Virus record (IMG/VR): IMGVR_UViG_3300044630_000957
Coordinates: 1 to 59,993 of that record
Direction: 5' to 3' (one strand)
Source of the DNA: a virus
Taxonomy: Duplodnaviria; Caudoviricetes
Length of the DNA: 59,993 bases
Positions 4,266 through 21,695 of this stretch are shown here, in pieces. Numbering within the stretch: position 1 is the first letter of the stretch; every line of letters begins with the position of its first letter. The notes under the pieces are model-generated. The model did no database searches, was not told where the DNA came from, and saw nothing but the letters and a program-made list of their open reading frames with translations. The translations under genes and the position numbers were made by a program.

Positions 4266-4828
4266 TATAGAGCTTCCGCGTTGAGGTCTACGGTCCACGT
4301 ATCAAGCACCGTGGCAGTGCCAGTGCGGCGAACTTGGAAGGCTAGTTGGGCATACACAGAGTTTCCTGACCCAGAAATATCTACGAGCCAAGCGGGGTTA
4401 CCAGTCGTCGCTATCCAAGTGTTAACCGTGCCAGTAACCGAACCGGCTGTCACACTAGCGTAAACTTCGTAGTTTCCACCTTGGCTGGTTGGTGTGCACC
4501 ACTGTTCTACATACATATAAGAGCCGCCGTTAAGCGCCTCATATACTTGGCCTATGGCGGCACCAGCACCGAAAATTGCGTACGCTGCTTCGGAATACCC
4601 AAAACCCGCAGCGAAAACGCCGTAATCGCTGAAAGTAATAAGGACATTGCTCTTGCCGTAGAAGTTGGTCGGCATGACAATAGCGCCAGACGCAACGCCC
4701 GCCAGCGTGCGGACGTCGGTGTCGTTCAGCGAGACCGTGGCGGTAGCAGCTTTACCCAACTCAAGGTTGATAGACTGCCCCGCAGTGCTGCCACCCAAGC
4801 TGATTGGGCCTGAAGAGTTAAGCGTCAT
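4265..4828 (-). CDS. Putative tail-fibre tip adhesin / fibre-associated protein
   Basis: N-terminal MTLNSSGPISLGG...INLELG...VSLND..VR.LAGV.SGAI.M..FYGKS type of cap, directly after an S74-bearing fibre; beta-rich C-terminus. Confidence 0.6.
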   Translation of the reverse strand: MTLNSSGPISLGGSTAGQSINLELGKAATATVSLNDTDVRTLAGVASGAIVMPTNFYGKSNVLITFSDYGVFAAGFGYSEAAYAIFGAGAAIGQVYEALNGGSYMYVEQWCTPTSQGGNYEVYASVTAGSVTGTVNTWIATTGNPAWLVDISGSGNSVYAQLAFQVRRTGTATVLDTWTVDLNAEAL

Positions 4829-7800
4829 TATTTAGCTCCCCGTAGCTCGTCCAGTTCCGCCTTTAACTCTGCGATGGCAGCGAACGCCACGGCGACCAGT
4901 TTCTCGTAATCAACCGCCAGTGTGCCGTCGTCGCGGGTGCGAACGGCCAGCGGGAACATTTCCTCCACGTCCTGCGCGATGACGCCGAAGTCGTTCTTGC
5001 GGACGAAGTAGTCGTCCTCGCCGCCGTGCTCCGCGATGTAGGCGTCGGTCCAATCGAACGTCTTGCCGCCAACAGTAGTCACGATGTCGAGCGCGTTCTC
5101 AATCGGACGCACGTTCTCTTTCAGACGCGCATCGGACGAATAGAACGCCGTGACGTTGTTCGTCGCACGGATCTCACCGGCAGTGCCAGAGCCTGCCGTG
5201 CCGACGCCGAGGCTGTTAACCTGATAGTTGTTGCTTGTGTTCAGCGCGTTTGCGGTGGTCGCCGTCGTAGCGGTTGTCGCCGAGGTGGCTGTCGCCGCGT
5301 TGCCGCTGACGTTGATGGCCCAAGTGCCGCTTGCGCCCGAACCCGTGGCGGAAGGTACACCAAGCGCGGACTGCGCGGTGGCTTGCGTAGTTCCGCCTGT
5401 GCCTCCATTGGCCACAGCGAGCGTGCCGCCAAGCGTCAGCGTGCCCGACGTCGTGATCGCGCCGCCGGTCAGGGTAAGGCCCGTCGTGCCGCCTGATCCA
5501 GAGACTGAGGTGACCGTGCCTGTGTTCGACGTAAAGCCCGAAGGGTTGCTTGCGGCGTAAGCGCCAAGGTTGGTGAGCGCAGATCCAGCGGTTGTTGCGC
5601 CGGTACCGCCGTTGGCCACGGCTACGGTGCCAGTGACGTTGGCTGCCGTCCCAGTCGTGTTCTGGTTAAGCGTTGGGACGTCAGCGGCTACAATCGCACG
5701 GAACGTAGGCGTACCCGCCGTGCCGTTCGGCGCGGACAGGAACGTATTGGCGGATTGTGACGCAAAGTTGGAAGCCGTGACGGCAAGCGTGCCGCCAAGG
5801 GTGAGGGAGCCAGACGTCGTAACCGTACCGCTCAGGCTCAGTCCGCTGACCGTGCCTGTGCCGCCAACTGAGGTGACCGTGCCTGTGTTCGAGGTGAAAC
5901 CAGACGGGTTACTCGCGGGATAAGCGCCAAGGTTGGTGAGCGCAGCGCCCGCAGTCGTTGCGCCTGTACCGCCATTAAGTATGGCGACAGTGCCAGTGAC
6001 GTTCGACGCCGTCCCAGTCGTATTCTGGTTGAGGGTCGGGAATGTGCAGTTTGTCAGCGTGCCAGAGGAGGGTGTGCCAAGCGCGCCGCCCGGAGCGACG
6101 TAGTCAGTGCCTGCGGTAGCGGCAGTGAACGCCGCAGTTCCGTTGCCCTTAACGAGGCCCGTAAGAGTGGTGGTGCCTGTGCCCCCGTTGGCGACAACAA
6201 GCGTACCAGCGAGGGTAAACGTACCCGCCCCTGTGATCGGCCCACCAGCCAAAGTGAGGCCCGTAGTGCCGCCCGACGCGGCCACGGATGTGACCGTGCC
6301 ACCGCCAGCGGTAGAGGTTATGGTAACGCCGCCCGCGCTGTTCGAGATAGATATGCCCGAACCTGCGGTGAGCGTTGCAACGCTGTACCCTGTGCCGTTG
6401 CCGATCAGGAGCTGGCCGTTTGACGGGGCAGTCGCGACGCCGGTACCGCCTTGTCCCACGCTGAGTGCGGTGGTCAAGCCTGTCAGTGACGTGATGTCGG
6501 AGTTCGCGCCGGAGCCAGCCGCGCTGAGGGTAAGTCTCGCGCCGGAGGCACTGGTCGCGCCAGTGCCCCCAGACGCTATCGCGAGCGTGCCCGCGAGTGT
6601 CAGTGTGCCGGAGGTGGTGATGGGCGAACCGGTAAAAGATAGACCGGTTGTGCCGCCCGACGCGGCCACTGACGTAACTGTACCGCCGCCAGCGGTAGAC
6701 GTGATGGTGATACCACCGGCACTGTTTGTGATGCTGATGCCCGACCCAGCCGTCAGGGTCGCCTTCGTGAGCGTGTTGCCTGTGCTGTTACCGATCAGGA
6801 GCTGCCCGTCGGTGTACGTGGTCTGGCCTGTGCCGCCGTTGGCGACAGGGAGCGCAGTGCCCGACAGCGAGATTGCCAGCGTGCCCGATGTCGTGATCGG
6901 CGAGCCGGTTACGGACAGGAACGACGGCACCGTTGCCGCGACGCTGGTCACCGAGCCTGAACCCGTGCCGACGCCCACGCCGTTGATGAAGAGGCCCGTG
7001 GCGTTAATCGTGCCCGCACCCTGCGCTCCGGCAGTAGGCGCGCCGATCTGGATACCTGCCGCGTTGGTCAGCGCAGTGATGTCCGCGTTGCTGCCTGATG
7101 CGGCTGCGCCAAGGCTCGTGCGCGCCGCGCCAGCCGTTGTGGCGTTTGTGCCGCCCTGCGCGACGCTCAGGGGCGTCGTGAGGCCAGACAACGATGTGAT
7201 GTCAGAGTTAGCGCCAGAGGCCGCCGCCGCGATGGCGGAGCGCGCCGCCGCCGTTGTGGTAGCCGTAAAGACCGCCGTGCCGATGCCTGTGCCGCCGAGG
7301 TTGGTCAGGGCCGACGGTGCGTTGGTCGCTCCGGTGCCGCCTTGGACAACAGGAACAATACCCGCAAAGGCTGCTGACGTGGTGGCCGAGATGATGTCCG
7401 TGCCGTCGCAGTACAGGATACCTGTCGCGCCCTGAGTGACCAAAGTGGCCGCGCCGCTGGCCGTCTTGATGCCTAGCGTAAATGCACCAGTCGTGGCGTT
7501 GTTGACCCAGTATTGCTGCACCGTCGCGGGCACAACGATGTTGACGTTGGAAGTCAGCGTGCCTGTGAACTTATACGCGATACGGTTAAGCTCAGAGCCA
7601 GCAAGCGTGTACGTGCCGCCAGTGACGGCGATGGTCGTGTAGTCGAAGGCGAAGACCGCCTGCTGGCCGAGGCCGATGGTGTACCACTGGATGCCGTCGC
7701 TTACGACCACGGCGCTGTCGCCCGGCTGCAAGCGCAGTGTGGCTGCCGCGTTGATAAGCTCAGAGCCAGACGGGTCGATAGTCAAGTCGCCCTGCCCGCC

Positions 7801-8391
7801 GTTGCGGACCTGCACAAACCAGCCGTCGCCAGCCGCCACGGCAGTCGGCAAGTTGAGCGTGCCGAGGCCGCCAGTCCAGACAAAAATCTTGGCGCGATCA
7901 GGGGCCGTGAGAGTGTACGGCGTAATGGAGAAGTCAACGACTTCGTAATTCTGCGCGAGGGTCGACCCAGTCGCGATCAGACCAGCGCCAGCCAGCGCTG
8001 CGGCTTGGGCCTGCGCCACGGCAGCGCCGTAGCGGAACGTGCGCCAGACACCGCCTACGGTGGTGTTGCTGATGAGGTAGCACTGCCACTGCTCACCTGC
8101 GCCGATGCTCAGGATTGCGTTGCCTGCGGCGTTGTCGACGGTGATGGTGTCTGGGCCGAGGTTGTTGAACAGGATTGTCTGGCCGACGCCGACTGACATC
8201 GCGTCAGGCAAAGTTATCGTGTAGGGGCCGGTTGGCGTGACGTCGATGATGCGCGCGACGACGTTGTTGCCGGTGGTGGCCTCAAGCGGCCACTCAAGGA
8301 CGATGTCGCTGGTCAGCGCAAGCGGGAGGTACGATACGTCTGAGGGGTAGATCGTCGTACCGCCGAAGACTTGAGTGAATGACGTGGACAT
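4828..8391 (-). CDS. Tail fibre protein 1 with C-terminal intramolecular chaperone (peptidase S74)
   Basis: Start MSTSF at 8391 after GGAGG; many V/IA.GGTG repeats; C-terminal SSDARLKENVRPI...FGVIAQDVEEMFP...VDYEKL plus coiled coil. Confidence 0.9.
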   Translation of the reverse strand: MSTSFTQVFGGTTIYPSDVSYLPLALTSDIVLEWPLEATTGNNVVARIIDVTPTGPYTITLPDAMSVGVGQTILFNNLGPDTITVDNAAGNAILSIGAGEQWQCYLISNTTVGGVWRTFRYGAAVAQAQAAALAGAGLIATGSTLAQNYEVVDFSITPYTLTAPDRAKIFVWTGGLGTLNLPTAVAAGDGWFVQVRNGGQGDLTIDPSGSELINAAATLRLQPGDSAVVVSDGIQWYTIGLGQQAVFAFDYTTIAVTGGTYTLAGSELNRIAYKFTGTLTSNVNIVVPATVQQYWVNNATTGAFTLGIKTASGAATLVTQGATGILYCDGTDIISATTSAAFAGIVPVVQGGTGATNAPSALTNLGGTGIGTAVFTATTTAAARSAIAAAASGANSDITSLSGLTTPLSVAQGGTNATTAGAARTSLGAAASGSNADITALTNAAGIQIGAPTAGAQGAGTINATGLFINGVGVGTGSGSVTSVAATVPSFLSVTGSPITTSGTLAISLSGTALPVANGGTGQTTYTDGQLLIGNSTGNTLTKATLTAGSGISITNSAGGITITSTAGGGTVTSVAASGGTTGLSFTGSPITTSGTLTLAGTLAIASGGTGATSASGARLTLSAAGSGANSDITSLTGLTTALSVGQGGTGVATAPSNGQLLIGNGTGYSVATLTAGSGISISNSAGGVTITSTAGGGTVTSVAASGGTTGLTLAGGPITGAGTFTLAGTLVVANGGTGTTTLTGLVKGNGTAAFTAATAGTDYVAPGGALGTPSSGTLTNCTFPTLNQNTTGTASNVTGTVAILNGGTGATTAGAALTNLGAYPASNPSGFTSNTGTVTSVGGTGTVSGLSLSGTVTTSGSLTLGGTLAVTASNFASQSANTFLSAPNGTAGTPTFRAIVAADVPTLNQNTTGTAANVTGTVAVANGGTGATTAGSALTNLGAYAASNPSGFTSNTGTVTSVSGSGGTTGLTLTGGAITTSGTLTLGGTLAVANGGTGGTTQATAQSALGVPSATGSGASGTWAINVSGNAATATSATTATTATTANALNTSNNYQVNSLGVGTAGSGTAGEIRATNNVTAFYSSDARLKENVRPIENALDIVTTVGGKTFDWTDAYIAEHGGEDDYFVRKNDFGVIAQDVEEMFPLAVRTRDDGTLAVDYEKLVAVAFAAIAELKAELDELRGAK

Positions 8392-8393
8392 TA

Positions 8394-9047
8394 TTACGCC
8401 TCCTTGCGCACGGCGGATCGGTCTAGGATTTTGGCGAGGTCTTCGCCGTTCAACATTGCCGCCGCGCGATCGTACATGCTCTGCCAAACTGGGATGCGTT
8501 CGTCGTTCTTGAGGAACGGCGTCGCTTCAACCAGCGTGCCGTAGAGCAAGAGCTGCGGGGCGTATTCGGTGATCCAGTTCGTCTGCACGCTCTCGTCGAG
8601 CAATGGCGGCAGCTCATAGTACAGGATCTCAAAGGGGTATTCTGCGTCGGGTGTCGGCGCAAGCAGCCAGTGGCTGTAGTCATAGTCGCTGTAGAAGATG
8701 GGCGTGTCCGTCTCCAACGCGTTCGGCCAATAGGACCGCAGATATTCATAGACGCGGGAGAACAGGATTTTGCGGTCGTTTCCTGTTGTGCCAGTGCCGA
8801 TGTTAATCGACACCGTGTCGCGCCAGCGATCAGGCTTGGGGTAGACAGACTGACCCGCAGAGAGCGTGCCAGTCACGACGTTGATGAAGCCCTCGACCTT
8901 CAGCTCGCGGGCGATGCGGCGCTCGGCGAGGTTGATTAAACGTGGGATTTGCTCAAAGACAATCGGGTCGGACGCAAGCGTATTGCCGCGCTCAAGGTAG
9001 CGCTGCACGTCTTGTTTCAACGTCGTGAATGTCATCGCAGTGGCCAT
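8394..9047 (-). CDS. Head-tail adaptor / tail tubular protein A-like
   Basis: 217 aa; PRLINLAERRIAREL...LAPTPD...LLLYGTLVEA pattern typical of podovirus adaptors. Confidence 0.65.
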   Translation of the reverse strand: MATAMTFTTLKQDVQRYLERGNTLASDPIVFEQIPRLINLAERRIARELKVEGFINVVTGTLSAGQSVYPKPDRWRDTVSINIGTGTTGNDRKILFSRVYEYLRSYWPNALETDTPIFYSDYDYSHWLLAPTPDAEYPFEILYYELPPLLDESVQTNWITEYAPQLLLYGTLVEATPFLKNDERIPVWQSMYDRAAAMLNGEDLAKILDRSAVRKEA

Positions 9048-9112: not shown

Positions 9113-9298
9113 TTACCCAGCGAGGAACTGCGCAAGCAGAGCGAAAAACGCTCCGAGAGCCGCCAGACCGCCAGCCAACTTAGCTTTGCCGCTGAGGGCG
9201 GGCTTCTCTGCGCCTTCCATAGGGATAATCTTGCCTACAGCCTTCTTGAGAATGGCCTTCTCGGCTTCCTTCTGGATAAGTTTCTTCAAATTAAGCAT
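9113..9298 (-). CDS. Small basic membrane protein (61 aa), lysis accessory candidate
   Basis: AGGAGA RBS; MLNLKKLIQK... with a hydrophobic C-terminal helix; follows the endolysin. Confidence 0.7.
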   Translation of the reverse strand: MLNLKKLIQKEAEKAILKKAVGKIIPMEGAEKPALSGKAKLAGGLAALGAFFALLAQFLAG

Positions 9299-9309: not shown

Positions 9310-9924
9310 TTATAACCAAGCAGCGTATTTCTTGGTCTTGGCTTTGCGGTCGTCGAGGCCGTGTGTGCCCCCGTTGATCCGCTTGGTGAGTTGCAGAATG
9401 GCAGCGTCGTTGATGCCCTGATCGCAGATCGACCACAGCTTGTTTGCGTCAAAGAACCACAACGCGCTTTCGAAGCCGAGTTCGTTAGCGACGATGTCTG
9501 GGTTGTCTAACACCTCCTGTTCGCGCCCGATGTACTTGCCGAATGCGCGGTAGTTGTTCTTCCCGGTGAGTTGGAGCGGACCCCTGCCCCGGTATTTCCA
9601 GCCCTCGCCTGACGCTTCATCGCCGTTGCCCATACGGTTGGCGTAGACGCGATTGGCAATCTTTTGCGGCTGGCGTTCATAAGCACGGGCCATAGCATCC
9701 GTGGGAAAATACTTCCCAAAGATGCCGCGCAAACCCTTTGCGCCATAGTTCAGGTTCTCACTGAACGCTTTGAAATTGCCGCTTTCATGCGCCGTCTGAG
9801 CGAAGAAATGTGCGGCGCGGTTTTTGTTCAGCTTGAAGTGCGCGCAGGCGGCCTTCAGCGTCCCCGGACCAAACGCGCCATCTGGATGGCATCCACATTT
9901 ATCTTGTAGGTTTATAAGGCTCAT
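9310..9924 (-). CDS. Endolysin, glycoside hydrolase family 19
   Basis: AHFFAQTAHESG, ENLNY, YRGRGPLQLTGKNNY and TKRINGG motifs; short N-terminal DGAFGPGT peptidoglycan-binding-like segment. Confidence 0.93.
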   Translation of the reverse strand: MSLINLQDKCGCHPDGAFGPGTLKAACAHFKLNKNRAAHFFAQTAHESGNFKAFSENLNYGAKGLRGIFGKYFPTDAMARAYERQPQKIANRVYANRMGNGDEASGEGWKYRGRGPLQLTGKNNYRAFGKYIGREQEVLDNPDIVANELGFESALWFFDANKLWSICDQGINDAAILQLTKRINGGTHGLDDRKAKTKKYAAWL

Positions 9925-10436
9925 TTCCCTGCACTCCGCCAATCTGGAAAGTCATTCTCGTCCACCACGCCGTCACCGTTCGCATCATAGCGCATATCGT
10001 TGCGATACTTCTCCCAAGGCTCCATGTCATCGTCATCGTCATCATCGTCGTCTTCAGGCTCGTCGATAAAGACTGTGGCCTGCGGATTGTCGTATGTTTT
10101 TGGTGCTTCAGGCTGCATCTCTGGTGTCAGGTCGAGCGGCGCGGGTGGTGCTGGCGCAGGCTCTTCTGGCTCAGGGTCGTTGCGATCTTCCGGTGGTGGT
10201 GGAACCAACTCGCCCTTCATACCCATCAACGTAGCATAGGAGCCAGCCACAGCGCCAACAACCGAGGTCATGACGTATGACAGCAAGCCGAACACATCCT
10301 TGTTGTCGATGACTTCATTCGACACGAACAGGCCCGCAATCATGGCAACGGTAATAGTGCAGATGACAAACGCCATCGTGCGGGCAGCCATGAGGAGCGC
10401 CTTGATGCGCGCATCCATTAATTTATCTTCCATCAT
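9921..10436 (-). CDS. Holin-like two-TM protein with acidic, Pro-rich tail and an EF-hand-like loop
   Basis: Two hydrophobic helices, a poly-Asp run and DANGDGVVDENDF; directly upstream of the endolysin. Confidence 0.55.
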   Translation of the reverse strand: MMEDKLMDARIKALLMAARTMAFVICTITVAMIAGLFVSNEVIDNKDVFGLLSYVMTSVVGAVAGSYATLMGMKGELVPPPPEDRNDPEPEEPAPAPPAPLDLTPEMQPEAPKTYDNPQATVFIDEPEDDDDDDDDDMEPWEKYRNDMRYDANGDGVVDENDFPDWRSAGK

Positions 10437-10957
10437 CAGTCCTTTCCGGCCAGCGGGTTCGCCAGCGTCTTTTGAATACGTTCGGCAGTCTCAGCCTCAA
10501 GTTCCTTGATGCGACGCTGCTGCTCCTGATCCTGCTGACGCAGTTGCTCTATGACGGCGCGCTGCATCGCCATGTTCTGCGCATCGCTGTTTCTAACGCT
10601 GCTCGACACCGCGTCAACCGTTTGGCGCGTCCCGCTTACGCTGCTGGAAATGCTGCCCGTCATATAATTAAGGGCTTCGCTGTTAATCTTGGTCAGACGC
10701 TCGACGCTCGTGACGCGCTCATCCAGCACCGAAATGCGTCCTTCAATGCCAGACAGGTCAGGCGGCACATAAGCCGCTGTGACTTCCTTCATGGTCAAGA
10801 ACTGCTGATACACTTGGAAGCCAGCCCAGAGGCCGCCGACAATGGTCGATATAGCCGCGAAGATAATGGCAATCTTGCCACTGCTCAGGCCACCAATCTT
10901 AAAACTGAAGCCGCTCTCATCAAAGGCGACCTTGGGTTCCTCATCTGTACTGCTCAT
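10436..10957 (-). CDS. Single-TM coiled-coil membrane protein
   Basis: TM segment IAIIFAAISTIVGGLWAGF followed by heptad-rich helices. Confidence 0.75.
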   Translation of the reverse strand: MSSTDEEPKVAFDESGFSFKIGGLSSGKIAIIFAAISTIVGGLWAGFQVYQQFLTMKEVTAAYVPPDLSGIEGRISVLDERVTSVERLTKINSEALNYMTGSISSSVSGTRQTVDAVSSSVRNSDAQNMAMQRAVIEQLRQQDQEQQRRIKELEAETAERIQKTLANPLAGKD

Positions 10958-12590
10958 CTACCATCTCCTGCCAGCGGGCATCATTCGTCTGCATCAGTCG
11001 ATACAATTCAAAGTTTGCGTCTTGCAGCCTACGTCGGCTGTATATATCACGAATTGCGTAAAAGTCAGCCCTATCTTGCAGGGATGTCTGAGTGTACGCA
11101 GCGAAGCCCGGCACGGCCCCCATTTCATTGATGGTTTCCGATTGGCCTTCTGACATCTCGTTTTCTGATTTTTCAGATGAGGCGGTTGCCGCAGCGGGCG
11201 CGGCGTTGCTTTGACCGCCGACGCTGTTCAGAATTTCAAAGGTATTAGCCATCGAAACAGGGCTGCCCACTGATATGGCGGCGTCGAGCGGTGACGAACC
11301 AAGGCCGACACCGCTGCCGCCTGCAACGGAAGCACTCGACCCAAAATCAACGCGCATTTGGAAGCCAGCAAAGCCCTGCACCGATTGTGCGTTGCCTTCA
11401 AAGGCCGACGCTTGGCTGGCCTGTTCGGCCTCCTCGAAGAAGGCCGATTGCTGCGCGCTCTCCTCAAGCGCCGTAGCATTTGCTTCTTGCTCCGCGCCCG
11501 ATGCGTCTTGGCTTTCCAAAGCGTTCTCTGCGCCTTCCAGCGACGCCAAGGTTTCACTGGCTAAAGTTTCTTTATCATCTTCGGGGCCCTGCGCCGCCAA
11601 TGCAGCCAATTCTTCAGGGGACAGGCGCTCGTCATCAATATCTTCTAAATCCTGTTCCGACACCAGTTCTTCGATGGTGTCGTCTTCGACCGCCTCTTCA
11701 ACGGCAGCCTCCTCAGCGGCAGTTTCGGCGTCAGCTTCGAGCGATGCTTCGGCAGTTTCCAGCGCCTGTTGCGCTTCTTCAATCTCCTGCTCGGCCACAT
11801 CTTCCATCTGCACTTCTTCCTGCGGCGTCTGCTCGACTGAAGCAACGGCAGTGTCCGATGTGCTTTCCGTAGGATCAGGTGCGCCGACATCGATGGCTAC
11901 GGATGCCGGTGGGCAAGTGGGGTCCATGGGCGTTGCGTTGCAGTCAACAGGCACAACCTCTGGCTCGGGCGCAATCCACGACAAGAGGCCCGACTGGTTC
12001 TGAAGGAACTGCGCGTTGCGCCCGTAGAAGAGCGGGATGTTATCGTCGGCAGTTGGGCCGGTGAGGCCCGCAGTAAAGTCGCGCCGACCGGAGAAACCCA
12101 GATTGCCAAAATTCAGTTGTATGTCGCCGTCGGCAAAGAGGCCAATCTCGAAGGTGCTGCTGTTGTTCGTGCCATATTCGTTCACGCCATACCAGCCGAA
12201 TAGGATCGAGCCGTCGTCGCGGCGATAATATGGGTTGCCAGTGTAGCTGATTAGGTCTGACCAGTAGGCGTAGATTGTGTTGCGCTGCGCCATTTCGATA
12301 GGCTGACCATTGCAGCACAGATGCGCGCCGCTCTGGAACGACACAAAGCCATTGCTCGAAACCCACGCGTCGGTGAACGTCTGGCCCCAATACTCAAATT
12401 CAAAGCCAAGGCTGACGTTCCGCGTGCCATCGTCACCCAGATTGAGGGGCGTCATTGTGGTAGGCGCGCCGTTGATTTGCGGGGGGATTAAGGCAGGCTC
12501 ATAGGTCTGCGCAGCCGCAGATGTACTGACCAGCAATGCAGCCAGTAAAGAGATTAGACGCTTAGTCTGCGTCGGGGCGGCGGTCGGCAT
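10941..12590 (-). CDS. Exported protein with signal peptide, NIDO-like beta domain and long acidic stalk
   Basis: KRLISLLAALLVSTSAAA|Q signal; LGDDG...LGFEFEYWGQTFTDAWVSSNGFVSF resembles NIDO-like domains; E/A-rich linker. Confidence 0.65.
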   Translation of the reverse strand: MPTAAPTQTKRLISLLAALLVSTSAAAQTYEPALIPPQINGAPTTMTPLNLGDDGTRNVSLGFEFEYWGQTFTDAWVSSNGFVSFQSGAHLCCNGQPIEMAQRNTIYAYWSDLISYTGNPYYRRDDGSILFGWYGVNEYGTNNSSTFEIGLFADGDIQLNFGNLGFSGRRDFTAGLTGPTADDNIPLFYGRNAQFLQNQSGLLSWIAPEPEVVPVDCNATPMDPTCPPASVAIDVGAPDPTESTSDTAVASVEQTPQEEVQMEDVAEQEIEEAQQALETAEASLEADAETAAEEAAVEEAVEDDTIEELVSEQDLEDIDDERLSPEELAALAAQGPEDDKETLASETLASLEGAENALESQDASGAEQEANATALEESAQQSAFFEEAEQASQASAFEGNAQSVQGFAGFQMRVDFGSSASVAGGSGVGLGSSPLDAAISVGSPVSMANTFEILNSVGGQSNAAPAAATASSEKSENEMSEGQSETINEMGAVPGFAAYTQTSLQDRADFYAIRDIYSRRRLQDANFELYRLMQTNDARWQEMVDEQYR

Positions 12591-13566
12591 TTTCTTCCCA
12601 TGCCGCTGTCGCAGCCTCACCGATTGCGCCCATGAACGGGCAGGGCGTACCAGCCATCTCCATCGCCCTGAAGACACGGGTGTCTTGGCACAGGAGGCTC
12701 ACGGCAGCGACGCGCATGCCCATGTCGTACAGGGTCTTCGAGAGCTTCATCCGCTCACAGTTTTGGTCGCGCACAGTGCGGCCAGCCGACAGGCCGATGA
12801 TTTGCGTCTGCACTGCACCAGACTGCCCAGTGGTGCAAAGATCTTGGCTGTAGGACATCATGCTTGGCGCGATGGCGCTGGGCGGAGGCGACTTGATGTT
12901 CTGATCGATAACCTGCCGAGAGACGTTCTCGCTATAGCTTTTGCTGTCGGAGACGTTGACGTTGTTGTTCTGGTTGACGTTGTTCGTCGTGCTGTTGATT
13001 GTCGAGTTCGACGTGTCGTTGTTGATGTTCCGGTTGGTGTTATCGGACCTGCTATTCACGCTCTGGTTGATCGTGCTGTTGCTCGTGTCGGTATTGATGT
13101 TCCGGTTGACGTTATCCGACGTGCTGGTGTTCTGGTTGATGTTCGTCATCGTGCCAGAATTGACGTTGGTGTTCTGGTTGATGTTCGTCATCGTGCCAGT
13201 ATTTTGGTTGATGTTCGTGTTCGTCGAAACATTGTTGTTCGTGTTGACCGACGTGCTCACGTTATTGTTGTTGTTCGTGTTGACCGACGTGCTCGTGCTG
13301 GCGTTCACGTTGTTGTTCGTGTTGACCGACGTGCTGGCAGACGTGCTGTTGTTGTTATTCGTGTTCGTCGACGTGCTGGTGGAATTGTTGTTATTGTTGT
13401 TCGTGTTTGTGCTGGTCGTCGTATTGGTGTTGTCCGACGTGCTGGTCGTGGTCGTGTTATAGATATATTCCGTAGGCGCTACGGATGCAGGCGGAGGGGT
13501 TGCCTGCGCAAACACGAGAGAAGCCGCGCTGGTGGCGGCCACAAAACCAAACAGAAACCGTTTCAT
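12562..13566 (-). CDS. Exported protein with signal peptide, Asn/Thr-rich repeats and a C-terminal domain with four Cys
   Basis: MKRFLFGFVAATSAASLVFA|Q; NTNNNN-STS repeats; PPPSAIAPS...DLC...NCERMKLSK...LLCQD...GTPCP. Confidence 0.8.
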   Translation of the reverse strand: MKRFLFGFVAATSAASLVFAQATPPPASVAPTEYIYNTTTTSTSDNTNTTTSTNTNNNNNNSTSTSTNTNNNNSTSASTSVNTNNNVNASTSTSVNTNNNNNVSTSVNTNNNVSTNTNINQNTGTMTNINQNTNVNSGTMTNINQNTSTSDNVNRNINTDTSNSTINQSVNSRSDNTNRNINNDTSNSTINSTTNNVNQNNNVNVSDSKSYSENVSRQVIDQNIKSPPPSAIAPSMMSYSQDLCTTGQSGAVQTQIIGLSAGRTVRDQNCERMKLSKTLYDMGMRVAAVSLLCQDTRVFRAMEMAGTPCPFMGAIGEAATAAWEENADRRPDAD

Positions 13567-13778
13567 CACCGATCCGCCTTGTTATCCAATTTATCTTCGA
13601 TCCGGCGAAGGTGCGTCATCACCTCGTCGAACTTCTTGTCAATGGCGTTGAACCTCTCTTCACCAAAGCCAAGGCGCGCCTCCATGAGGGTAAGCCTGTT
13701 GTTGAGGTTGACCCAGACCGTTATGAGGCCGCCGATGAAGGCCAGCACGGTGACGATGGTGTTGATGTCAAAGTCCAT
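13566..13778 (-). CDS. Small TM plus coiled-coil protein (holin / XhlA-like candidate)
   Basis: 70 aa; N-terminal TM helix and a C-terminal coiled coil (LRRIEDKLDNK). Confidence 0.65.
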   Translation of the reverse strand: MDFDINTIVTVLAFIGGLITVWVNLNNRLTLMEARLGFGEERFNAIDKKFDEVMTHLRRIEDKLDNKADR

Positions 13779-14140
13779 TATTTCAGGTTCCGCAGCTTAT
13801 ATACGGCGGTCAGATACACTTCCGTGACGCCGTCGACGAGGTTGGCCACTGCGCGGTTGCCCTTGCAGACGGCCTCGTGGTTCTCCTCGATCCAGTCCGC
13901 ATCAGCCTCTAGGAGCTTCAGCACGTCACGCTCAGTCACCTTCGGGGCCGGTATGTTCCCGATGAGGCTGAACGCGCCTTGGTAGGCTTCTACGAGCTTG
14001 TCGATCGCGTCGATCACGTCGTCGTAGAAGCCGCCCAAAGCCATGTGCTTTGCGAAACTGCCATCACCCTTGGCGCGCCAGTGCTCAAAGTGCGCCACGT
14101 TGCGTGCGTAGAACACGCGGCTGATGAGTTCCTCGATCAT
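13778..14140 (-). CDS. Ferritin/Dps-like four-helix protein (DUF5856-like)
   Basis: AHFEHW...AKHMALGGFYD...IDKLVEAYQG...YKL pattern. Confidence 0.65.
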   Translation of the reverse strand: MIEELISRVFYARNVAHFEHWRAKGDGSFAKHMALGGFYDDVIDAIDKLVEAYQGAFSLIGNIPAPKVTERDVLKLLEADADWIEENHEAVCKGNRAVANLVDGVTEVYLTAVYKLRNLK

Positions 14141-14141
14141 G

Positions 14142-14345
14142 TTACGCGCCGTTTGGCGCAAGCTGGGTGTTTGCCTGCTCCATGATTTTGCGCAGCATCG
14201 GGTCGGCTATCTTATGTGGCAGCTCCTGCAATGCGGCGAGGATAAGGTTTATGTCGTTGACGGCCAGTTCCAACTTTACAACTGGCTCCTGCGGTGCAGC
14301 TTGAACCTGATTGTCTACGTCGAGGTGGTCTAGTTCTTTATTCAT
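14142..14345 (-). CDS. Small protein downstream of tail fibre 2
   Basis: AGGAGA RBS, 67 aa, tight spacing. Confidence 0.75.
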   Translation of the reverse strand: MNKELDHLDVDNQVQAAPQEPVVKLELAVNDINLILAALQELPHKIADPMLRKIMEQANTQLAPNGA

Positions 14346-14735: not shown

Positions 14736-17700
14736 TTACTGTTCCTTTGCTTCTAGGGCTTTTACCTTATTTGTGAGTTCTTTTACAGCCTCAATCAGCA
14801 GGCCGATAGTGGCGTTGTAATCCACTGCCTTGATGTCGCCGTGATCGCGCACAGCTTCCGGCAGAACCGTTTCGATTTCCTGCGCGATGACGCCAGCGTA
14901 CCGCTGCTCTTTATCATCAAGGTCTGTGCGGGTGTATGTAACGCCCCGTATCTGGTCTAGCTTGTCCAGTGCGTTTGGAATTGTCTCGACGTTGGCTTTG
15001 ATGCGTATGTCTGAGAACGCAGTGACGTTGCCGGTGGCTGTTATAGCGCCGTATACATAAAGACCACGCGACCCAGCCTGACCGATTTCGACGTTTGTCC
15101 CTGCCGTGGCTTTAATCATCGGCGCACCGACTGTAAGGTCCCAAACCTGCCAAACACCCGCACTGGCAACATCAAAGGAACATTCGGCACTGGCGGCAAC
15201 GAGGATGTTAACTCCAGTGTTCCACGTTATGTCACCACGCCAAGTCTGAACGCCCAAGCTAACGGTTTGAAGGACCGAAGTGCCATTTGGGTCTACATAG
15301 AAGCCGCTATCATTGTTGTCGTACATGATTGGCGCGTAGAAATTGACATTCGACCGAGTAAAAGCACTTCCGTTCCCGATATCAAACAGAACCGCACTGT
15401 TTTCGATGTTAATGAACTGGAAACCGCCATAGGCAGGACTTGCCCGGAAACGCTGTCCTGTATAGAAACGGATTTCTAGCGGCTGCGTCCACGCCCCAGC
15501 GGGCTTGCCTATACGGTAATTAGTGTCGCCGTCAGAGTGGAAGTTGATCCATAACGAGCCACTTGTGGTGACGTTTTGACCCCCAAGGTAAATGGACGAT
15601 GCTGATGTATCGGTAGATTGTGCAATAAAGTTAGCACGGTTAAGGTTGCTGAAACCGTTAGGGTCAAGGTAATAGCCAGTGTCGTTGCTGTCGTAGAAGA
15701 TTGGTGCACGGACGTCAGCAGTGACAGAAAGAGTGCCGCCCATCGACATTGTCATACCGATTGCCGACGCTACGCCAGCATAACCGGGTGTAGCCGATCC
15801 CCACCAAAAACGATTGGAGGTATCAATACCGAAGCCCGCGCCAAGTTGACCGGCGCGGGTTAGGCCGTAGTAGGAATAGTTGTTACCATCAGTTGCGCGT
15901 GTAACCGCTATCTTACCGTAAGGATCATTTGTTTGCCCACTATCGTAAACGCCAAGATTTTGGGCAAGAAGTGTAATTAAACTCGACGTGCTGGCCGCGT
16001 CGATGAAAAATCCGGTGTTGTTGCTATCGTAGAAGATAGGTGCGCGCATAGAAACGTCGCTCTGAGTAAACCCTGCGGACCCGAAAAAGTAAGCACCGCC
16101 GTCCCAGAATAGGTACTTAGAACCTCCATCGGCAAAGTAGTAGACGCCTGTAGTTCCACTACTACGGCGTGAATAAACATCGCCGTTACCTTGAATTACG
16201 GTGCCACCATCAAACAGTACCTGACCGCCCAACCGCGAGCCAGCGGCGGGATCGAGATAATACGCAGTGTTGTTGCTGTCGTAAAAGATCGGTGCGCGGA
16301 AGTCACCACTGGCAGCGAACGTAGCGCCGCTTGGGGCGTCGGCCCAACCAGCGTAAATCTTCGACCATGCGCTCCAAGCACCGGCTTCACGGAAACGAAC
16401 AGATGGATACGGAAGTCCGCCTACTGCGGTACGAGGCCAATAAAACTGACTGGCGTAGTCAGAATAGGGGTAGTTTGACCCCAGACCAAGGCTAAACCCG
16501 TAATACTGGGTAGCACCAGAAATGCCGGGGCCATTCGTGTTACCTTGTACATACCTTACGCCGAAATTGGTAATTGCATTGAAATCAGTTTGCTGACCAT
16601 GCACTTGGTTCATGTTATTGAACGTGGCGATTGCGCCAAGGACGTTTCCACTTGCCACATTTAGGTCATTAAGGACCGATGTGCTGGCCGCGTCGATGTA
16701 GTACGCGGTGTTATTGCTGTCGTAGAAGATCGGAGCGCGGGAGGAGCCAAAAGCAGTGACGAAGTTACCCGTGTTGATGCCGAGAGCAATAGTCCCAGTG
16801 CCGGTTACGTCTGACGAAGACCCGTTAACCCAGAAGTACATACCAGCATCGGCGGAAGTGTAATCAACGCCGATACCTGAATATTTAGCGTTTGCGGAGT
16901 TGAACACCAGTACGGGGAAAGTGGCCGCGAGCATCATGTTGCGGTTCCAGCCAGCCGTCATGGCTGTGCCGCCACTATTTACCAGTGTGCCGTTGAGGTT
17001 GGAGCCAGATGCGGGGTCGAGGTAATAACCCGTGTTGTCGCTGTCGTAGTATATCGGGGCGCGCATGTCCCCGTTATTGATTTGGAGGCCGGTGCTGTTC
17101 CACGAGGCGACAGTAGTCCGAAGAGCGGGGTTGATGGTGTCAGACGTTCCGTATTGCAGAATGCCACCGTTGTAACCTGCAATGGCAAGTTGGTCGCTGG
17201 GGTTTGCACCATAATTACCAAATACGACGTAACCGCCCATGTTGTTATCTTGGAAAGCGATACCGGAATAAGTGGCATTATCCGCTGAATGACGGAACAG
17301 AAGGTAGTTGTTGCCGGAGCTATCAAGAATGCCAGTTACACCGGAAGGGAGCGCGCCGATCCCTGTCGGCGTTGACGCAACTACATGTGACTTTGCCAGT
17401 GGTGTAACCGTGCCGATACCGACATTTCCGCTGGGGTATTTGATGGTCAGGCGCGGCGTTGTTCCTGCCTCGATAATTTGGAAATCATCGCCAGTTGTCT
17501 GCAAGTCGTATGAATAGTTAGTCGCAGAGCCGATACGCACATAGCGGTTCGCTCCGTTGTTCAGTGTTAGATTGCCTGACGTGATAAGATTGCCAGCGGT
17601 GTTTAATGAGGTCGAACCAGTAGGATCAAGATAATAGCTCGTGTTCGCACTGTCATAGAAGATTGGCGCACGGACATCGCCATTCGCAGTGAACGAACCA

Positions 17701-20700
17701 GAGCTATTTAACGTAGCTTTTGTCATCATCGTATTGTCGGAGCCGTTTTCGGTTCCGAAATACATTATGTTTGAGCCGTATACGATTGCGCCATGCTGAC
17801 CCGCAGAGGCACCAAATGCAATACCATAAGCGGCAAAGGCTGTTGCAGGTTCATATATGTTACCGATGCCGACACCCGCACCGATATTTGACGGATCAAC
17901 ATCTCCGCCGGTTACGTAAACAGCATTTAATCTCGAACCGCCAGCCGGATCGAGGTAGTAGCTCGTGTTCGCGCTGTCGTAGTATATCGGGGCACGCATA
18001 TCGACGTTGGCCGTGACGTTACCGCTGCTGTTGATCGAAAGGCGTTGCGTGTTGCTTGTGAGGAAATTTAAGGGTATCGCGCCGGGTGTTACTATTTCGG
18101 CTGCGGATGAGTTGACCCCAAAATAAGCGATTGCGGTTCCGCCTACCTTTAACGCGTTGATTGCTGATGTAGCGCCGTTGGTTTCGATTAACCCGCGACC
18201 ACTTGTGCCGTAAACACTGGTGGCTCCGCCAACTATCACGTTACCGCCGTCACCCTGCAAACACAGATTTGTAGGTACGCTACCAGCGTATGCCTGTAAC
18301 GAACCTACATACCCCTGCACAGGGTCGTTGATATACCCCATCTGCAAACGGTAAGCGGTGTTGTTTGTGGCCTCGCCAATCTGGAGTTGGTTCCCACCAG
18401 CAAAGGTTGTTGGTGTTGTTGCGGGGATAAGCGTTAGACGCCCGCCGAAGTCCGTGGTAGTCCCCACCAGCAAGTTGCCGCTGGCGTTGATGCGCATACG
18501 TTCAGTGAAAGCCCCCGCCGCGCGCTGTCCAAAACGCATAACATCTGCTGTGTTGGTAAAAATCTGCAAGCCGTTACTGTCGGGCGTGCCGATGCCATAG
18601 TCAGCGGTGTAGCTGTAAAAAGACTTACTGATAGGTACAATTATGTTACCTTCAACACGCAGCCTCTCCACTGGTAAAGTGGTGCCAATACCGACATTCG
18701 TGCCGTCGTCGTATATAACCGACGCGCTGACAGCCGACGTGCCGTTACCCTTGAGAACGTAGCCCGATGACAGGGTCGTTGCGCCTGTGCCGCCATTGGC
18801 GACGTTCAGCGTGCCTGCAAGAGTGATCGTCCCGCTGGTGGTGACTGGGCCGCCAGACGTCGTCAGGCCGGTGGTGCCGCCGCTGACGTCGATACTCGTA
18901 ACGGTGCCCGCGCCACTCGCGGGCGAGGAGATAGTGAAGTTCGGGTACGTGCCGGTCACGGTCGTAGCGCCAGATCCTGTCAGCGACACAACCTGATCTG
19001 GGGCCGTGTTGGTGACGGTGATAGAGCCAGAGGACGTGATAGGGCCGCCAGAGACGCTGACGCCAGTTCCCGCAGTCAGGTTGACGCTGGTGACGGTGCC
19101 GGTGTTTGACGTAAAGCCAGACGGATTGCTCGCGGGGTACGCTCCGAGGTTCGTCAGCGCAGTTGCCGCGCTCGTCGCGCCAGTACCGCCATTAGCGATG
19201 GCAAGTGCGCCAGACGTGATCTGCGACGCAGCGATAGCGATTGCAGACGACGACGCAGACGTAATCTGACCCTGCGCGTTGACCGCGATGACAGGGACGG
19301 AGGACGCGCTGCCATAGGTCGATGCGCTTACGCCTGTGTTCGTGATGCTGAAGACCGTACCGGTCAGCGTCAGGCCAGTGCCCGCCGAGTACAGGACTGG
19401 CGCGGCGAACTGCGTGAACGTAATCGGCGTTGTGCCGACCGTAATCGGCAGTGGCGTCTGCTGCACCCACGACGTGTTGGACAGCGTCGATCCCGCCGTG
19501 ACAAGGAAGAAGTCGCCCGCGTCGATCTGGTCAACGCCAGTGCCTGCGCTGTCGAAGTCTGTTGCGCGTGTCAGGATGTACGGCGTCGAGCCGTTGCCGA
19601 CCTGCGTGACGGTGTAGACGCCGTTATTGGCCCCCGCCGCCTCGTCCTTGACCAAGATGCGGTTGCCCGCAACCACGGCCACGCCGTCGACCGAGAGTGC
19701 GCCGTTGGCATTGGCCGTGAGCGTCGCGCCGACGCCAGAAGTGCCGTTGTTGTACGTGTTGGCAGGCAGAGCCGCAGCCGTTGCCAAGCGCACGGACTGA
19801 TGGAAGTTGATGCCTGACGCGATGCTGTCGGCATACGCCTTGTTGACGATGTCGGTGCCGTTGACTGGCGACGTGCTGATTGTGCCTGTGGTGAGCGCAA
19901 TCGACGTGATGTCGGTGTTGGCACCAGAGGCCGCCGCGCTGAGGTTCGTGCGCGCCGTGGCGGCCACGCTCGCGCCTGTGCCGCCATTGGCGATGGCAAC
20001 GATGCCCGTTACGTTTGAGGCCGTGCCGGTCGTGTTCTGGTTGAGCGTTGGGATGTCCGCCGCAACGATAGCGCGGAACGTCGGCGTGCCTGCCGAGCCG
20101 TTCGGTGCCGCAAGGACCGTGTTGGCCGTCTGCGACGCGAAGTTGGACGGCAGGACGGCAAGCGTCCCACCAAGTGTCAGCGAACCTGCGGACGTCACTG
20201 TGCCGCTCAGGCTCAGGCCGCTGACGGTGCCGGTGCCTGAGACTGACGTCACCGTACCTACGTTAGATGTGAAGCCCGAAGGGTTGCTTGCGGGGTACGC
20301 ACCTAAGTTCGTTAGAGCAGCGACTGCGTCCGTTGCGCCAGTACCGCCATTGACGATGGCAAGCGTGCCGTTGAGGGTCAGTGTGCCCGCCGACGTAATT
20401 GGGCCGCCGGTAAACGACATGCCCGTTGTGCCGCCGCTGGCATTGACGCTGGTCACGGTGCCTGCGGTGCTGTCGTTCGATGTGATTGTGAAGCTAGGGT
20501 ACGTGCCAGTGACGGTCGTCGTGCCTGCGCCTGTTAGGGATACGACCTGATCTGGCGCGGTGTTGGTGACTGTGAACGACGGGTAGCTGCCGGTGACTGA
20601 GATTGCGGTGCCGCCTGTCAGCGCCACGACCTGATCGGGCGCAGCGTTGACCAGAGAGCCGCTGGCGAGCGTCAGACCATTGCCGACGGAGATTTCCTCC

Positions 20701-21695
20701 GCAGCGCCGACTGATGCCGTAGTGCGGCCTAGAAGCCGCGCAGAGGCCAATGTCAGGCCGCTGGCGGTGTATGCGCCCGGCGCGACGTAATCAATGCCTG
20801 CGGTGGCCGCAGACAGCTCTGTGCCGTTGCCTTTAAGCAAGCCGCTCACGGTCGTCGAAAGCGTGATAATCGGTGACAGGGTCGGGCTGGCAACGGTGCC
20901 CGCAAAACCGTTGGCGGTCGCGACGGCAACGCTGATTACGGTGCCCGCGCCTACCTCAGTCCAGAAGGGCACGCCGCCGGGGCCGCCAGAGCGCAGAACC
21001 TGCCCAATGCTTCCGGCGGTGGTCAGATACAGCTTGTCGTTGCTAGAATAGACGATGGCACCGGCAACAGGAGACAGACTGTTGCCAGTGCCGCCACGGG
21101 ACAAGGGGAGCACGCCTTGCGTTTCCGTGGTGTCGCTCAAGTCCACCGCAGGGTGGACGTGATCTCCACGCGCGGCAACAGTCGAGACACCGGAGGAACC
21201 GGGACCGAGAGGCTCAGGCGTTGTAGATGAAAAGATTACAGCGAAAGAACGGTTGGCGGAAAGATCTCCGCCGCCGGTCAGACCCGCGCCAGCCGTGATT
21301 GTGCGGCTGGTGGGGACGTAATTTGCGAGTACGATAGGTGCCGAGGTCGCACCCGTGACGCGGCCCTGCGCGTTGACCGTGAGGACTGGCACGCTGTCGG
21401 CGGCACCGTAAGTGCCAGCCGTGACGCCTGTGGTGGTCAGGCGGCTGTCATCGACACCGCCCGGCAAGATGAAGAGCGTGCGGTTGGTCGACAGATCTCC
21501 GCCGCCACCCAGACCGCTGCCTGTGTTGATTTCACGCGAGGACGGCACCGCGCCGACGGCAGCGATGTTGGCGAACTGGACCTTGAAGGTGCGTCCGTCG
21601 ATGATGTACGGCATGTAGCCGAGTGTGCTCGTTCCCTGATATTCAGGGAGGCCGGTGATGCGGGTAGGGATGAGATTTGTAGGGACGTTGCTCAA
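14736..21695 (-). CDS. Tail fibre protein 2 (2319 aa) with C-terminal peptidase S74 chaperone
   Basis: GGTG repeats, eight RAPIFYDS-type repeats, C-terminal FSDIRIKANV...AGVIAQEIE.VLPEAV...VDYN; TTG start overlapping the upstream TGA. Confidence 0.92.
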   Translation of the reverse strand: MSNVPTNLIPTRITGLPEYQGTSTLGYMPYIIDGRTFKVQFANIAAVGAVPSSREINTGSGLGGGGDLSTNRTLFILPGGVDDSRLTTTGVTAGTYGAADSVPVLTVNAQGRVTGATSAPIVLANYVPTSRTITAGAGLTGGGDLSANRSFAVIFSSTTPEPLGPGSSGVSTVAARGDHVHPAVDLSDTTETQGVLPLSRGGTGNSLSPVAGAIVYSSNDKLYLTTAGSIGQVLRSGGPGGVPFWTEVGAGTVISVAVATANGFAGTVASPTLSPIITLSTTVSGLLKGNGTELSAATAGIDYVAPGAYTASGLTLASARLLGRTTASVGAAEEISVGNGLTLASGSLVNAAPDQVVALTGGTAISVTGSYPSFTVTNTAPDQVVSLTGAGTTTVTGTYPSFTITSNDSTAGTVTSVNASGGTTGMSFTGGPITSAGTLTLNGTLAIVNGGTGATDAVAALTNLGAYPASNPSGFTSNVGTVTSVSGTGTVSGLSLSGTVTSAGSLTLGGTLAVLPSNFASQTANTVLAAPNGSAGTPTFRAIVAADIPTLNQNTTGTASNVTGIVAIANGGTGASVAATARTNLSAAASGANTDITSIALTTGTISTSPVNGTDIVNKAYADSIASGINFHQSVRLATAAALPANTYNNGTSGVGATLTANANGALSVDGVAVVAGNRILVKDEAAGANNGVYTVTQVGNGSTPYILTRATDFDSAGTGVDQIDAGDFFLVTAGSTLSNTSWVQQTPLPITVGTTPITFTQFAAPVLYSAGTGLTLTGTVFSITNTGVSASTYGSASSVPVIAVNAQGQITSASSSAIAIAASQITSGALAIANGGTGATSAATALTNLGAYPASNPSGFTSNTGTVTSVNLTAGTGVSVSGGPITSSGSITVTNTAPDQVVSLTGSGATTVTGTYPNFTISSPASGAGTVTSIDVSGGTTGLTTSGGPVTTSGTITLAGTLNVANGGTGATTLSSGYVLKGNGTSAVSASVIYDDGTNVGIGTTLPVERLRVEGNIIVPISKSFYSYTADYGIGTPDSNGLQIFTNTADVMRFGQRAAGAFTERMRINASGNLLVGTTTDFGGRLTLIPATTPTTFAGGNQLQIGEATNNTAYRLQMGYINDPVQGYVGSLQAYAGSVPTNLCLQGDGGNVIVGGATSVYGTSGRGLIETNGATSAINALKVGGTAIAYFGVNSSAAEIVTPGAIPLNFLTSNTQRLSINSSGNVTANVDMRAPIYYDSANTSYYLDPAGGSRLNAVYVTGGDVDPSNIGAGVGIGNIYEPATAFAAYGIAFGASAGQHGAIVYGSNIMYFGTENGSDNTMMTKATLNSSGSFTANGDVRAPIFYDSANTSYYLDPTGSTSLNTAGNLITSGNLTLNNGANRYVRIGSATNYSYDLQTTGDDFQIIEAGTTPRLTIKYPSGNVGIGTVTPLAKSHVVASTPTGIGALPSGVTGILDSSGNNYLLFRHSADNATYSGIAFQDNNMGGYVVFGNYGANPSDQLAIAGYNGGILQYGTSDTINPALRTTVASWNSTGLQINNGDMRAPIYYDSDNTGYYLDPASGSNLNGTLVNSGGTAMTAGWNRNMMLAATFPVLVFNSANAKYSGIGVDYTSADAGMYFWVNGSSSDVTGTGTIALGINTGNFVTAFGSSRAPIFYDSNNTAYYIDAASTSVLNDLNVASGNVLGAIATFNNMNQVHGQQTDFNAITNFGVRYVQGNTNGPGISGATQYYGFSLGLGSNYPYSDYASQFYWPRTAVGGLPYPSVRFREAGAWSAWSKIYAGWADAPSGATFAASGDFRAPIFYDSNNTAYYLDPAAGSRLGGQVLFDGGTVIQGNGDVYSRRSSGTTGVYYFADGGSKYLFWDGGAYFFGSAGFTQSDVSMRAPIFYDSNNTGFFIDAASTSSLITLLAQNLGVYDSGQTNDPYGKIAVTRATDGNNYSYYGLTRAGQLGAGFGIDTSNRFWWGSATPGYAGVASAIGMTMSMGGTLSVTADVRAPIFYDSNDTGYYLDPNGFSNLNRANFIAQSTDTSASSIYLGGQNVTTSGSLWINFHSDGDTNYRIGKPAGAWTQPLEIRFYTGQRFRASPAYGGFQFINIENSAVLFDIGNGSAFTRSNVNFYAPIMYDNNDSGFYVDPNGTSVLQTVSLGVQTWRGDITWNTGVNILVAASAECSFDVASAGVWQVWDLTVGAPMIKATAGTNVEIGQAGSRGLYVYGAITATGNVTAFSDIRIKANVETIPNALDKLDQIRGVTYTRTDLDDKEQRYAGVIAQEIETVLPEAVRDHGDIKAVDYNATIGLLIEAVKELTNKVKALEAKEQ

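Follow-up and report, generated by a model that had tools for sequence, protein, structure and literature searches.

The virus record IMGVR_UViG_3300044630_000957 (Duplodnaviria; Caudoviricetes) was analysed over its entire length of 59,993 nt, referred to below as the window (CheckV completeness 100%). Its lysis region carries three overlapping genes, here called (i), (ii) and (iii). The first two encode large proteins with signal-like N-termini and long stalks, and the third a helical rod with a single transmembrane (TM) segment. Comparison of related loci indicates that this trio is a real conserved unit, beyond chance. We tentatively read it, with some reserve, as the conserved core of a late accessory envelope module linked to the lysis cassettes of aquatic tailed phages, which would work beside the outer-membrane device and not replace it. 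The module is rated as lying outside the known kinds of system: its likeness to spanins is one of topology only and it is not counted among them.

The genes and their parts are as follows. Every gene of the region is on the minus strand.

Gene (i), 12562..13566, minus strand, 334 amino acids (aa): signal-like N-terminus, Asn/Thr/Ser-rich stalk, four-Cys domain
Parts of (i): signal peptide, nt 13507-13566; stalk, nt 12901-13467; four-Cys domain, nt 12565-12861
Gene (ii), 10941..12590, minus strand, 549 aa: signal-like N-terminus, beta-sandwich, acidic stalk, conserved C-terminal region
Parts of (ii): signal peptide, nt 12510-12590; beta-sandwich, nt 11901-12509; stalk, nt 11271-11900; C-terminal region, nt 10944-11270
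Gene (iii), 10436..10957, minus strand, 173 aa: short N-terminus, one TM segment, variable helical region, C-terminal LxNPL
Parts of (iii): TM segment, nt 10811-10876; invariant LxNPL, nt 10451-10465

Conservation of the trio and its association with lysis genes

The original prediction described three overlapping genes at 10436-13566 lying between two holin-like genes. The coordinates, the overlaps (29 and 17 nt) and the strand are confirmed, while the holin-like character of the flanks comes down to topology and one weak PHROG match for the upstream gene g70. Synteny was examined in the closest 80 of at least 588 loci, fetched with the four-Cys domain alone; 53 of the 80 include at least 4.5 kb downstream. 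Within these 53, tblastn detects (ii) in all and (iii) in 51, and the order (i)<(ii)<(iii) is retained in 51/51 loci where all three are found. The expected co-occurrence of the trio in relatives is therefore observed. The two loci in which (iii) was missed are L066 and L082, and inspection by eye reveals in L066 a shorter type of (iii) ending in NPL.

Marine contigs show the same gene order at 21-30% identity, and it recurs in two more clades that were retrieved with distant members of the family. It is also found in HTVC115P (gp54, gp53, then the (iii) homologue), HTVC023P (gp45, gp46, gp48), the T7-like pelagiphage Baldr (001, 003, 004), CRP-810 and MW202675. In six Pelagibacter phage records the four-Cys domain is 52-65% identical. 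This domain was confirmed in at least 588 stretches of viral contigs, and 1001 representatives (50% identity) were obtained at E<=1e-3, 267 of them at E<=1e-10. For (ii), 106 relatives were confirmed in viral contigs; for (iii), 524 proteins among 604 candidates match at E<=1e-3. A module of this kind had been presented as unusual cargo for such a phage, which is wrong, since it is common in this phage group.

The four-Cys matches examined are phage records or contigs of aquatic metagenome-assembled genomes (MAGs), Pelagibacter and Roseobacter phages being among them. The Atlas clusters and neighbours of the trio families are 100% viral. With the four-Cys domain as query, genomes of 185,579 species (one each) gave 12 matches, of which 11 lie in aquatic MAG contigs and the remaining one, a weak match, in Streptomyces. 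Judged from these matches, the trio families appear to be phage-restricted. They have no Pfam match (separate domains searched to E 10) and no named PHROG function, and NCBIfam gave only low-complexity matches far below cut-offs. All homologues listed for the trio are unnamed or 'hypothetical'. The literature search, which did not extend to supplementary gene tables that may hold annotations, returned no description of the trio proteins; they are unmentioned in the accessible text of the HTVC115P, CRP-810, Melnitz and pelagiphage-transcriptome papers.

What chiefly argues for a role related to lysis is that the module lies beside unrelated lysis parts in different lineages. The adjoining gene is a GH19 endolysin in the window and a peptidase M15 in HTVC023P. 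In L193 and L195 the module is next to a GH24-type endolysin (phrog_7, 6.7e-43) and a different putative holin (phrog_6637, function unknown). In Baldr it directly precedes the large terminase gene, and the slot before the large terminase gene is where T7 carries its holin and spanin genes. The location of the trio in the lysis operon makes a joint envelope role plausible.

Architecture of the three proteins

The signal peptide, Asn/Thr stalk and four-Cys domain first noticed in (i) are all borne out. Its N-terminus, MKRFLFGFVAATSAASLVFA directly before Q, is signal-peptide-like by hydropathy and the -3/-1 rule (not a dedicated predictor). Residues 34-222 consist of 72% Asn, Thr and Ser and are partly made of tandem repeats of 36-78 nt. 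The protein contains exactly four Cys (244, 270, 293 and 309), in a domain of about 100 aa at the C-terminus. It matches phrog_20531 (function unknown; E 2.5e-13). The AlphaFold2 model of the domain (predicted local distance difference test, pLDDT, 80.6) comprises a beta-hairpin and four helices, and its comparison with the PDB gave no convincing fold (Foldseek best E 1.0; VIA best Z 2.9).

In the database, (i) of this record is called as a protein of 195 aa (P0392) that begins inside the low-complexity stalk and lacks the signal peptide. The 334-aa reading is favoured because its start is coupled to the preceding gene, its N-terminus is kept in close relatives and signal-like N-termini are present in 46/64 long family representatives. 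Many relatives of (i) are seemingly shortened in the same way as P0392, which hides the export signal from automatic annotation. Members of the family start with a signal peptide, continue through a T/S/N-rich linker and a PxAxAPS motif to the domain, and close with a variable tail, which ends in a hydrophobic segment in 15/96 members. Most relatives have ordinary A-x-A-type signals; a lipobox-like signal peptide was seen in 3/58 members examined. In P0255 and P0260 a small protein composed of a cytoplasmic helix plus a TM segment, unlike g70 and in the position of g70, is fused N-terminally to the four-Cys domain. A protein of the same kind is encoded just upstream in L206 and L209.

Unimolecular spanins of the T1 gp11 type combine an N-terminal lipobox and a C-terminal TM segment in one chain (cited in bioRxiv 10.1101/515445). 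Some relatives of (i) approach this layout in pairing an N-terminal signal with a C-terminal hydrophobic anchor, and a few have the lipobox-like signals. The window's (i), however, has no lipobox (no Cys occurs before residue 244) and no C-terminal hydrophobic segment that could act as a TM anchor, and so differs from a unimolecular spanin at both ends.

The N-terminus of (ii) is also signal-peptide-like, by simple rules and not a dedicated predictor, and ends in AAA before Q. Residues ~28-225 are modelled by AlphaFold2 as a beta-sandwich (pLDDT ~90). The stretch 231-440 is acidic (26% Asp+Glu, net charge -52) and for the most part disordered, and the C-terminal helices of the model are of low confidence. 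The signal-like N-terminus and the acidic stalk thus stand as originally described, as does a sandwich domain at the level of the model. The label 'NIDO-like' does not and is reduced to a motif resemblance: hmmscan with residues 28-230, run to E 10, found no family, NIDO (PF06119) included, and PF06119 searched against all six frames of the record had no match at E<=10. The best PDB matches are generic sandwiches (Foldseek E 0.088; VIA Z 5.5, root-mean-square deviation 3.2 over 107 residues, with the whole 549-aa model as query).

Relatives of (ii) keep a C-terminal region of ~70 aa (PGFxAYTQ...DANxxxYR...QY). Their N-terminal domain is exchanged between the window's type and a 'DNLLxNxGF' type while this C-terminus is retained, and both total length (430-1088 aa) and stalk length are highly variable. 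A tblastn search of phage records with (ii) gave no match, though the C-terminal motif is seen by eye in HTVC115P.

The description of (iii) as a single-TM coiled-coil protein holds at the level of simple sequence rules. A single hydrophobic segment (residues 27-49) is followed by a Pro/Gly-poor, heptad-rich region: 31/97 windows of 28 residues past the TM segment have L/I/V/M at 6 or more of 8 a/d positions (a heuristic, not a coiled-coil program), and residues 76-165 include only 2 Pro/Gly. By this heuristic count (iii) has the N-terminal TM segment and periplasmic coiled coil that are expected of i-spanins. The invariant residues of the alignment are A3; G41, W44, G46 and F47 at the end of the membrane helix; and L165, N167, P168 and L169. 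The rod between these ends varies freely. Such a combination of invariant ends and variable middle shows a tether-like pattern. In most loci of the window's clade (iii) is 89-100% identical where (ii) is 57-77% identical. It has no Rz-like PHROG match at E<=0.1 and no Pfam match above cut-off, whereas the true i-spanins of relatives do match Rz-like PHROGs. CRP-810 gp51, annotated 'lysozyme', is a homologue of (iii) ending in NPL.

Spanins, g61 and the neighbouring genes

The trio had been proposed either to replace canonical spanins, no lipobox-bearing o-spanin being visible, or to remodel the infected cell surface (for example by receptor masking), and was expected to anti-correlate with Rz/Rz1. 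The absence of an o-spanin is upheld. Both strands of the whole record were scanned for lipoboxes under strict and relaxed rules. The strict scan gave one match, antisense to (ii), and no credible o-spanin open reading frame (ORF); all matches of the relaxed scan were judged spurious (antisense or out of frame; two checked). The same rule does find lipoboxes in relatives. The anti-correlation, on the other hand, fails: the module occurs together with a classic Rz/Rz1 pair in 19/211 stretches compared, which represent 18 contigs from three clades.

Window's clade, spanin and module: L046 (same contig as L152), L051, L052, L053, L079, L154
Marine clade, spanin and module: L064, L065, L066, L070, L072, L073, L082
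L198 clade, spanin and module: L198, L200, L206, L208, L209

In each pair a coiled-coil protein with an N-terminal TM segment is accompanied by a Pro-rich lipoprotein from an embedded or overlapping gene; the pairs are supported by PHROG 'Rz-like spanin' matches (phrog_1327 8e-12, phrog_739 6.8e-11, phrog_812 9.3e-16, phrog_1152 1.8e-4). In a tree built from (iii) and the endolysin of 70 distinct loci in the window's clade, the spanin state has to change 5 times, with at least 2 of the changes forced by well-supported branches. In this clade, the trio is constant while the spanin pair comes and goes. Since the module stands beside ordinary spanins in relatives, the trio is probably no replacement for them, and that part of the earlier proposal is not supported.

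It is another gene, g61, located directly behind the endolysin, that alternates with Rz/Rz1 in the window's clade. The content of this slot in the 70 loci is given below; among the loci with a g61-like gene only, 62 were recognised with a feature rule, and the other 3 needed tblastn or looser thresholds.

g61, 9113..9298, minus strand, 61 aa: net charge +6, C-terminal Ala/Gly-rich hydrophobic helix
Slot occupied by g61-like gene only: 65 loci
Slot occupied by Rz/Rz1 only: 3 loci
Slot occupied by both: 2 loci
Slot occupied by neither: 0 loci

No family match was found for g61 in Pfam, PHROG or NCBIfam. Its distribution makes it more likely than the trio to take the last outer-membrane step in this spanin-less phage, and it is a candidate disruptin-like or holin-level factor. 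In the phiKT disruptin paper, 91/677 genomes are spanin-less and candidates are sought with a rough screen (<80 aa and a charge of at least +4), which g61 passes (bioRxiv 10.1101/515445). Like the disruptin gp28 of phiKT, g61 is a small cationic peptide gene adjoining the endolysin in a spanin-less phage; unlike gp28, which is described there as having no membrane-localisation sequence, it has a predicted hydrophobic helix. The comparison is one of descriptions.

The other genes of the core are the following.

g70, 13566..13778, minus strand, 70 aa: N-terminal hydrophobic helix and charged helical tail; first gene of the coupled run
Gene (iv), 9921..10436, minus strand, 171 aa: two TM helices and a Pro-rich, very acidic tail (poly-Asp, DANGDGVVDEND)
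GH19 endolysin, 9310..9942, minus strand: PF00182 E 5.3e-12, 46.5 bits against a cut-off of 25.5; phrog_181 E 2e-63

In transcription order the core reads g70, (i), (ii), (iii), (iv), GH19 endolysin and g61. All junctions from g70 to the endolysin are overlaps of 1, 29, 17 and 1 nt, the first of them being TGATG between g70 and (i), followed by ATGA if the endolysin starts at 9924. This ATG, overlapping the stop of (iv), is likely the true endolysin start. Within the run from g70 to the endolysin, promoter and terminator scans gave counts not above the shuffled expectation.

The weak PHROG match of g70 is to phrog_1296 'holin' (E 0.0033), and a g70 homologue precedes the four-Cys gene in 39/67 loci with at least 1.5 kb upstream (tblastn). 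Gene (iv) has two hydrophobic segments and no family match. Its tail (33% Asp+Glu, 19% Pro) includes a run of nine Asp and the DANGDGVVDEND stretch, which we take to resemble a calcium-binding loop. It is the best holin candidate, and a neighbour of the trio rather than a member: it is found downstream in 43/53 loci (tblastn), and L001 and L052 carry shorter 2-TM counterparts.

Small Cys-rich proteins accompany the module in several relatives. In CRP-810 (L161) and MW202675 (L001) a lipoprotein ORF lies between the g70-like and four-Cys genes (lipoboxes LLSAC and LVAAC). Its Cys pattern is like that of the second half of the four-Cys domain, and it is unannotated in CRP-810. A second small Cys-rich family, with the motif YRYPCQ(D/N)P, directly follows the (iii)-like gene in L198, L200, L206, L208, L209, L166 and L001. 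Its members are lipoproteins in L198, L209 and L166 and non-lipidated in MW202675.

Upstream of g70 the transcription order is a 2319-aa tail-fibre ORF, DUF7936 (PF25590, 4.4e-18), a 67-aa ORF and DUF5856 (PF19174, 1.5e-12); after g61 come a virion protein (phrog_2941) and a second tail-fibre ORF.

Tail-fibre ORF of 2319 aa: 14736-21695, minus strand
Tail-fibre ORF of 1219 aa: 4828-8487, minus strand
DUF5856 protein: 13778-14161, minus strand; phrog_858 'starvation-inducible regulator', Dps-like; directly upstream of the module

The DUF5856 gene holds the same position in several related clades, for example in L206 and L209. The two tail-fibre ORFs share long near-identical Gly/Thr-rich repeat modules and similar C-terminal ends, which presumably resemble an intramolecular chaperone domain. 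Genes for portal, large terminase, head, DNA polymerase, primase and helicase are all present in the window. An imperfect direct repeat links the record ends (1-562 with 57809-58370, 96.3%; 1503-2124 with 59371-59992, 96.8%), and the middle of these end repeats (1-2124, 57809-59992) is divergent. The repeat probably reflects a circular or permuted genome of ~57.9 kb whose assembly includes one large tail-region gene twice, as two variant copies. A DNA-level search of phage records matched 33, in the endolysin region only, none spanning at least 80% of the query.

Proposed role, alternatives and significance

In the proposed mechanism, (iii) would be held in the inner membrane through the invariant GGLWxGF helix, possibly accompanied there by g70, and would extend its variable helical rod into the periplasm. 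The C-terminal LxNPL may dock one of the two Sec-exported partners. Protein (ii) would be attached via its conserved C-terminal region, its long flexible stalk presenting the N-terminal beta-sandwich, and this swappable domain may grip a host-specific envelope component. Protein (i) would supply a disulfide-type four-Cys domain on its N/T/S-rich stalk. At lysis such a tether might help to dismantle or detach an envelope layer, or inter-layer links, that holin, endolysin and spanin leave untouched.

Several points weigh against this proposal. The loci counted above are closest relatives, kin to one another, so that the counts cannot be taken as independent. Some contigs have no lysis genes around the trio: its neighbours in L080, for example, are FecR-like, ferredoxin-reductase-like, WYL_2 and CHASE2-cyclase genes. 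Linkage to a lysis cassette is therefore not universal. No outer-membrane anchor is evident for the window's (i) or (ii), and the Pfam, PHROG, NCBIfam and PDB fold searches give no functional lead for the trio. Finally, exported proteins with swappable binding domains would fit receptor masking too.

Superinfection exclusion or receptor masking, which we consider unlikely, would have the exported proteins attach to a receptor or envelope structure from the periplasm and so block later phages or the loss of progeny on debris. Predicted export of both (i) and (ii) is consistent with it, as are the exchange of the (ii) N-terminal domain between lineages in the manner of receptor-binding parts, the tail-fibre genes flanking the region in the window and in CRP-810, and the separation of the trio from lysis genes in L080. 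However, the trio is translationally coupled to a holin candidate and the endolysin. It is typically prophages that express exclusion genes, and the module is almost absent from bacterial genomes (the 12 matches, 11 of them MAG contigs, reported above), hence from prophages. The masking proteins known so far (T5 Llp, T1 Cor) each consist of one small lipoprotein, unlike a three-part module with an inner-membrane rod. More generally, phage periplasmic or envelope proteins acting late or against superinfection include T4 antiholin RI (with the holin T), T5 Llp and T1 Cor, and none of these is known to involve exported multi-domain proteins with stalks or three genes in a conserved order.

A lipoprotein-free spanin substitute in this phage, with (iii) as i-spanin and (i)/(ii) in place of the o-spanin, appears quite unlikely. 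The resemblance to lambda Rz/Rz1-type spanins covers several points: (iii) has an N-terminal TM segment, a periplasmic helical rod and a conserved C-terminal end, and the trio genes overlap and sit inside the lysis operon. The complete record has no lipobox ORF, the Baldr module occupies the slot before the large terminase gene, and the lipobox-like signals of 3/58 members of the (i) family and the Cys-rich lipoprotein within the CRP-810 and MW202675 modules point the same way. In contrast to Rz/Rz1, the trio has no lipoprotein partner, the partners of (iii) being two large Sec-exported stalked proteins, and (iii) matches no Rz-like profile. The module coexists with genuine, PHROG-supported Rz/Rz1 in the 19 loci described above, and the alternation with Rz/Rz1 belongs to g61. 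Without an outer-membrane lipid anchor there is moreover no obvious path to membrane fusion.

We give little credence to control of lysis timing, in which (iii) would be a one-TM holin or holin partner and (i)/(ii) antiholin-like sensors, as T4 T with RI. Its invariant membrane helix (G41, W44, G46, F47) is more than a plain anchor requires, and in HTVC023P the (iii) homologue is the sole TM protein near the endolysin. Additional lysis factors do exist: Lcc6 of Shewanella phage LambdaSo is a fourth factor, a small membrane protein not known before, that lysis can need besides holin, endolysin and spanin (bioRxiv 10.1101/2024.01.23.576932). Compared by description, Lcc6 (65 aa, one TM) falls in the size class of g70 and g61; it is a single protein at the holin step, in contrast to an exported three-part module. 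Against timing control, most cassettes contain other holin candidates ((iv) here, the phrog_6637 type in L193), and holin families change between lineages whereas (iii) does not. Long disordered stalks and swappable domains are not known from antiholins.

Virion or ejection proteins, inserting uncleaved hydrophobic N-termini into host membranes at infection, are very improbable: the region does lie among tail genes (two tail-fibre ORFs and the phrog_2941 virion protein), but the N-termini are typical of Sec signals and end in an A-x-A-like manner, an oxidising periplasm would suit both the low-complexity N/T/S stalk and the four-Cys domain, and the Baldr genes are outside the internal-core gene block, as placed by the T7 gene order. 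Two further ideas were dropped: TonB/TolA mimicry, of which topology was the sole basis, and cation chelation by the acidic stalk, which is absent in the L198-type clade.

The accessory envelope module thus remains our tentative reading. A bolder form of it would make the trio and its small TM companion a fourth class of lysis machinery, an inner-membrane-anchored periplasmic complex with a host-specific grip, needed for efficient release in the most abundant phages of oceans and lakes, including pelagiphages; this is possible and rather doubtful. Textbook lysis of Gram-negative hosts involves holin, endolysin and spanin, and a role of the trio in lysis would extend this scheme by a further step. 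A concrete new disruptin candidate emerges from the alternation of g61 with Rz/Rz1 at a single position. The trio itself has neither family name nor fold match, and keeps a fixed order across diverse aquatic phages, usually in lysis operons, including those of SAR11 and Roseobacter phage isolates. If the proposal is true, it would reveal a new lysis step in viruses responsible for much of the turnover of marine bacteria, and would provide a handle on how phages exit from cells with poorly studied envelopes.

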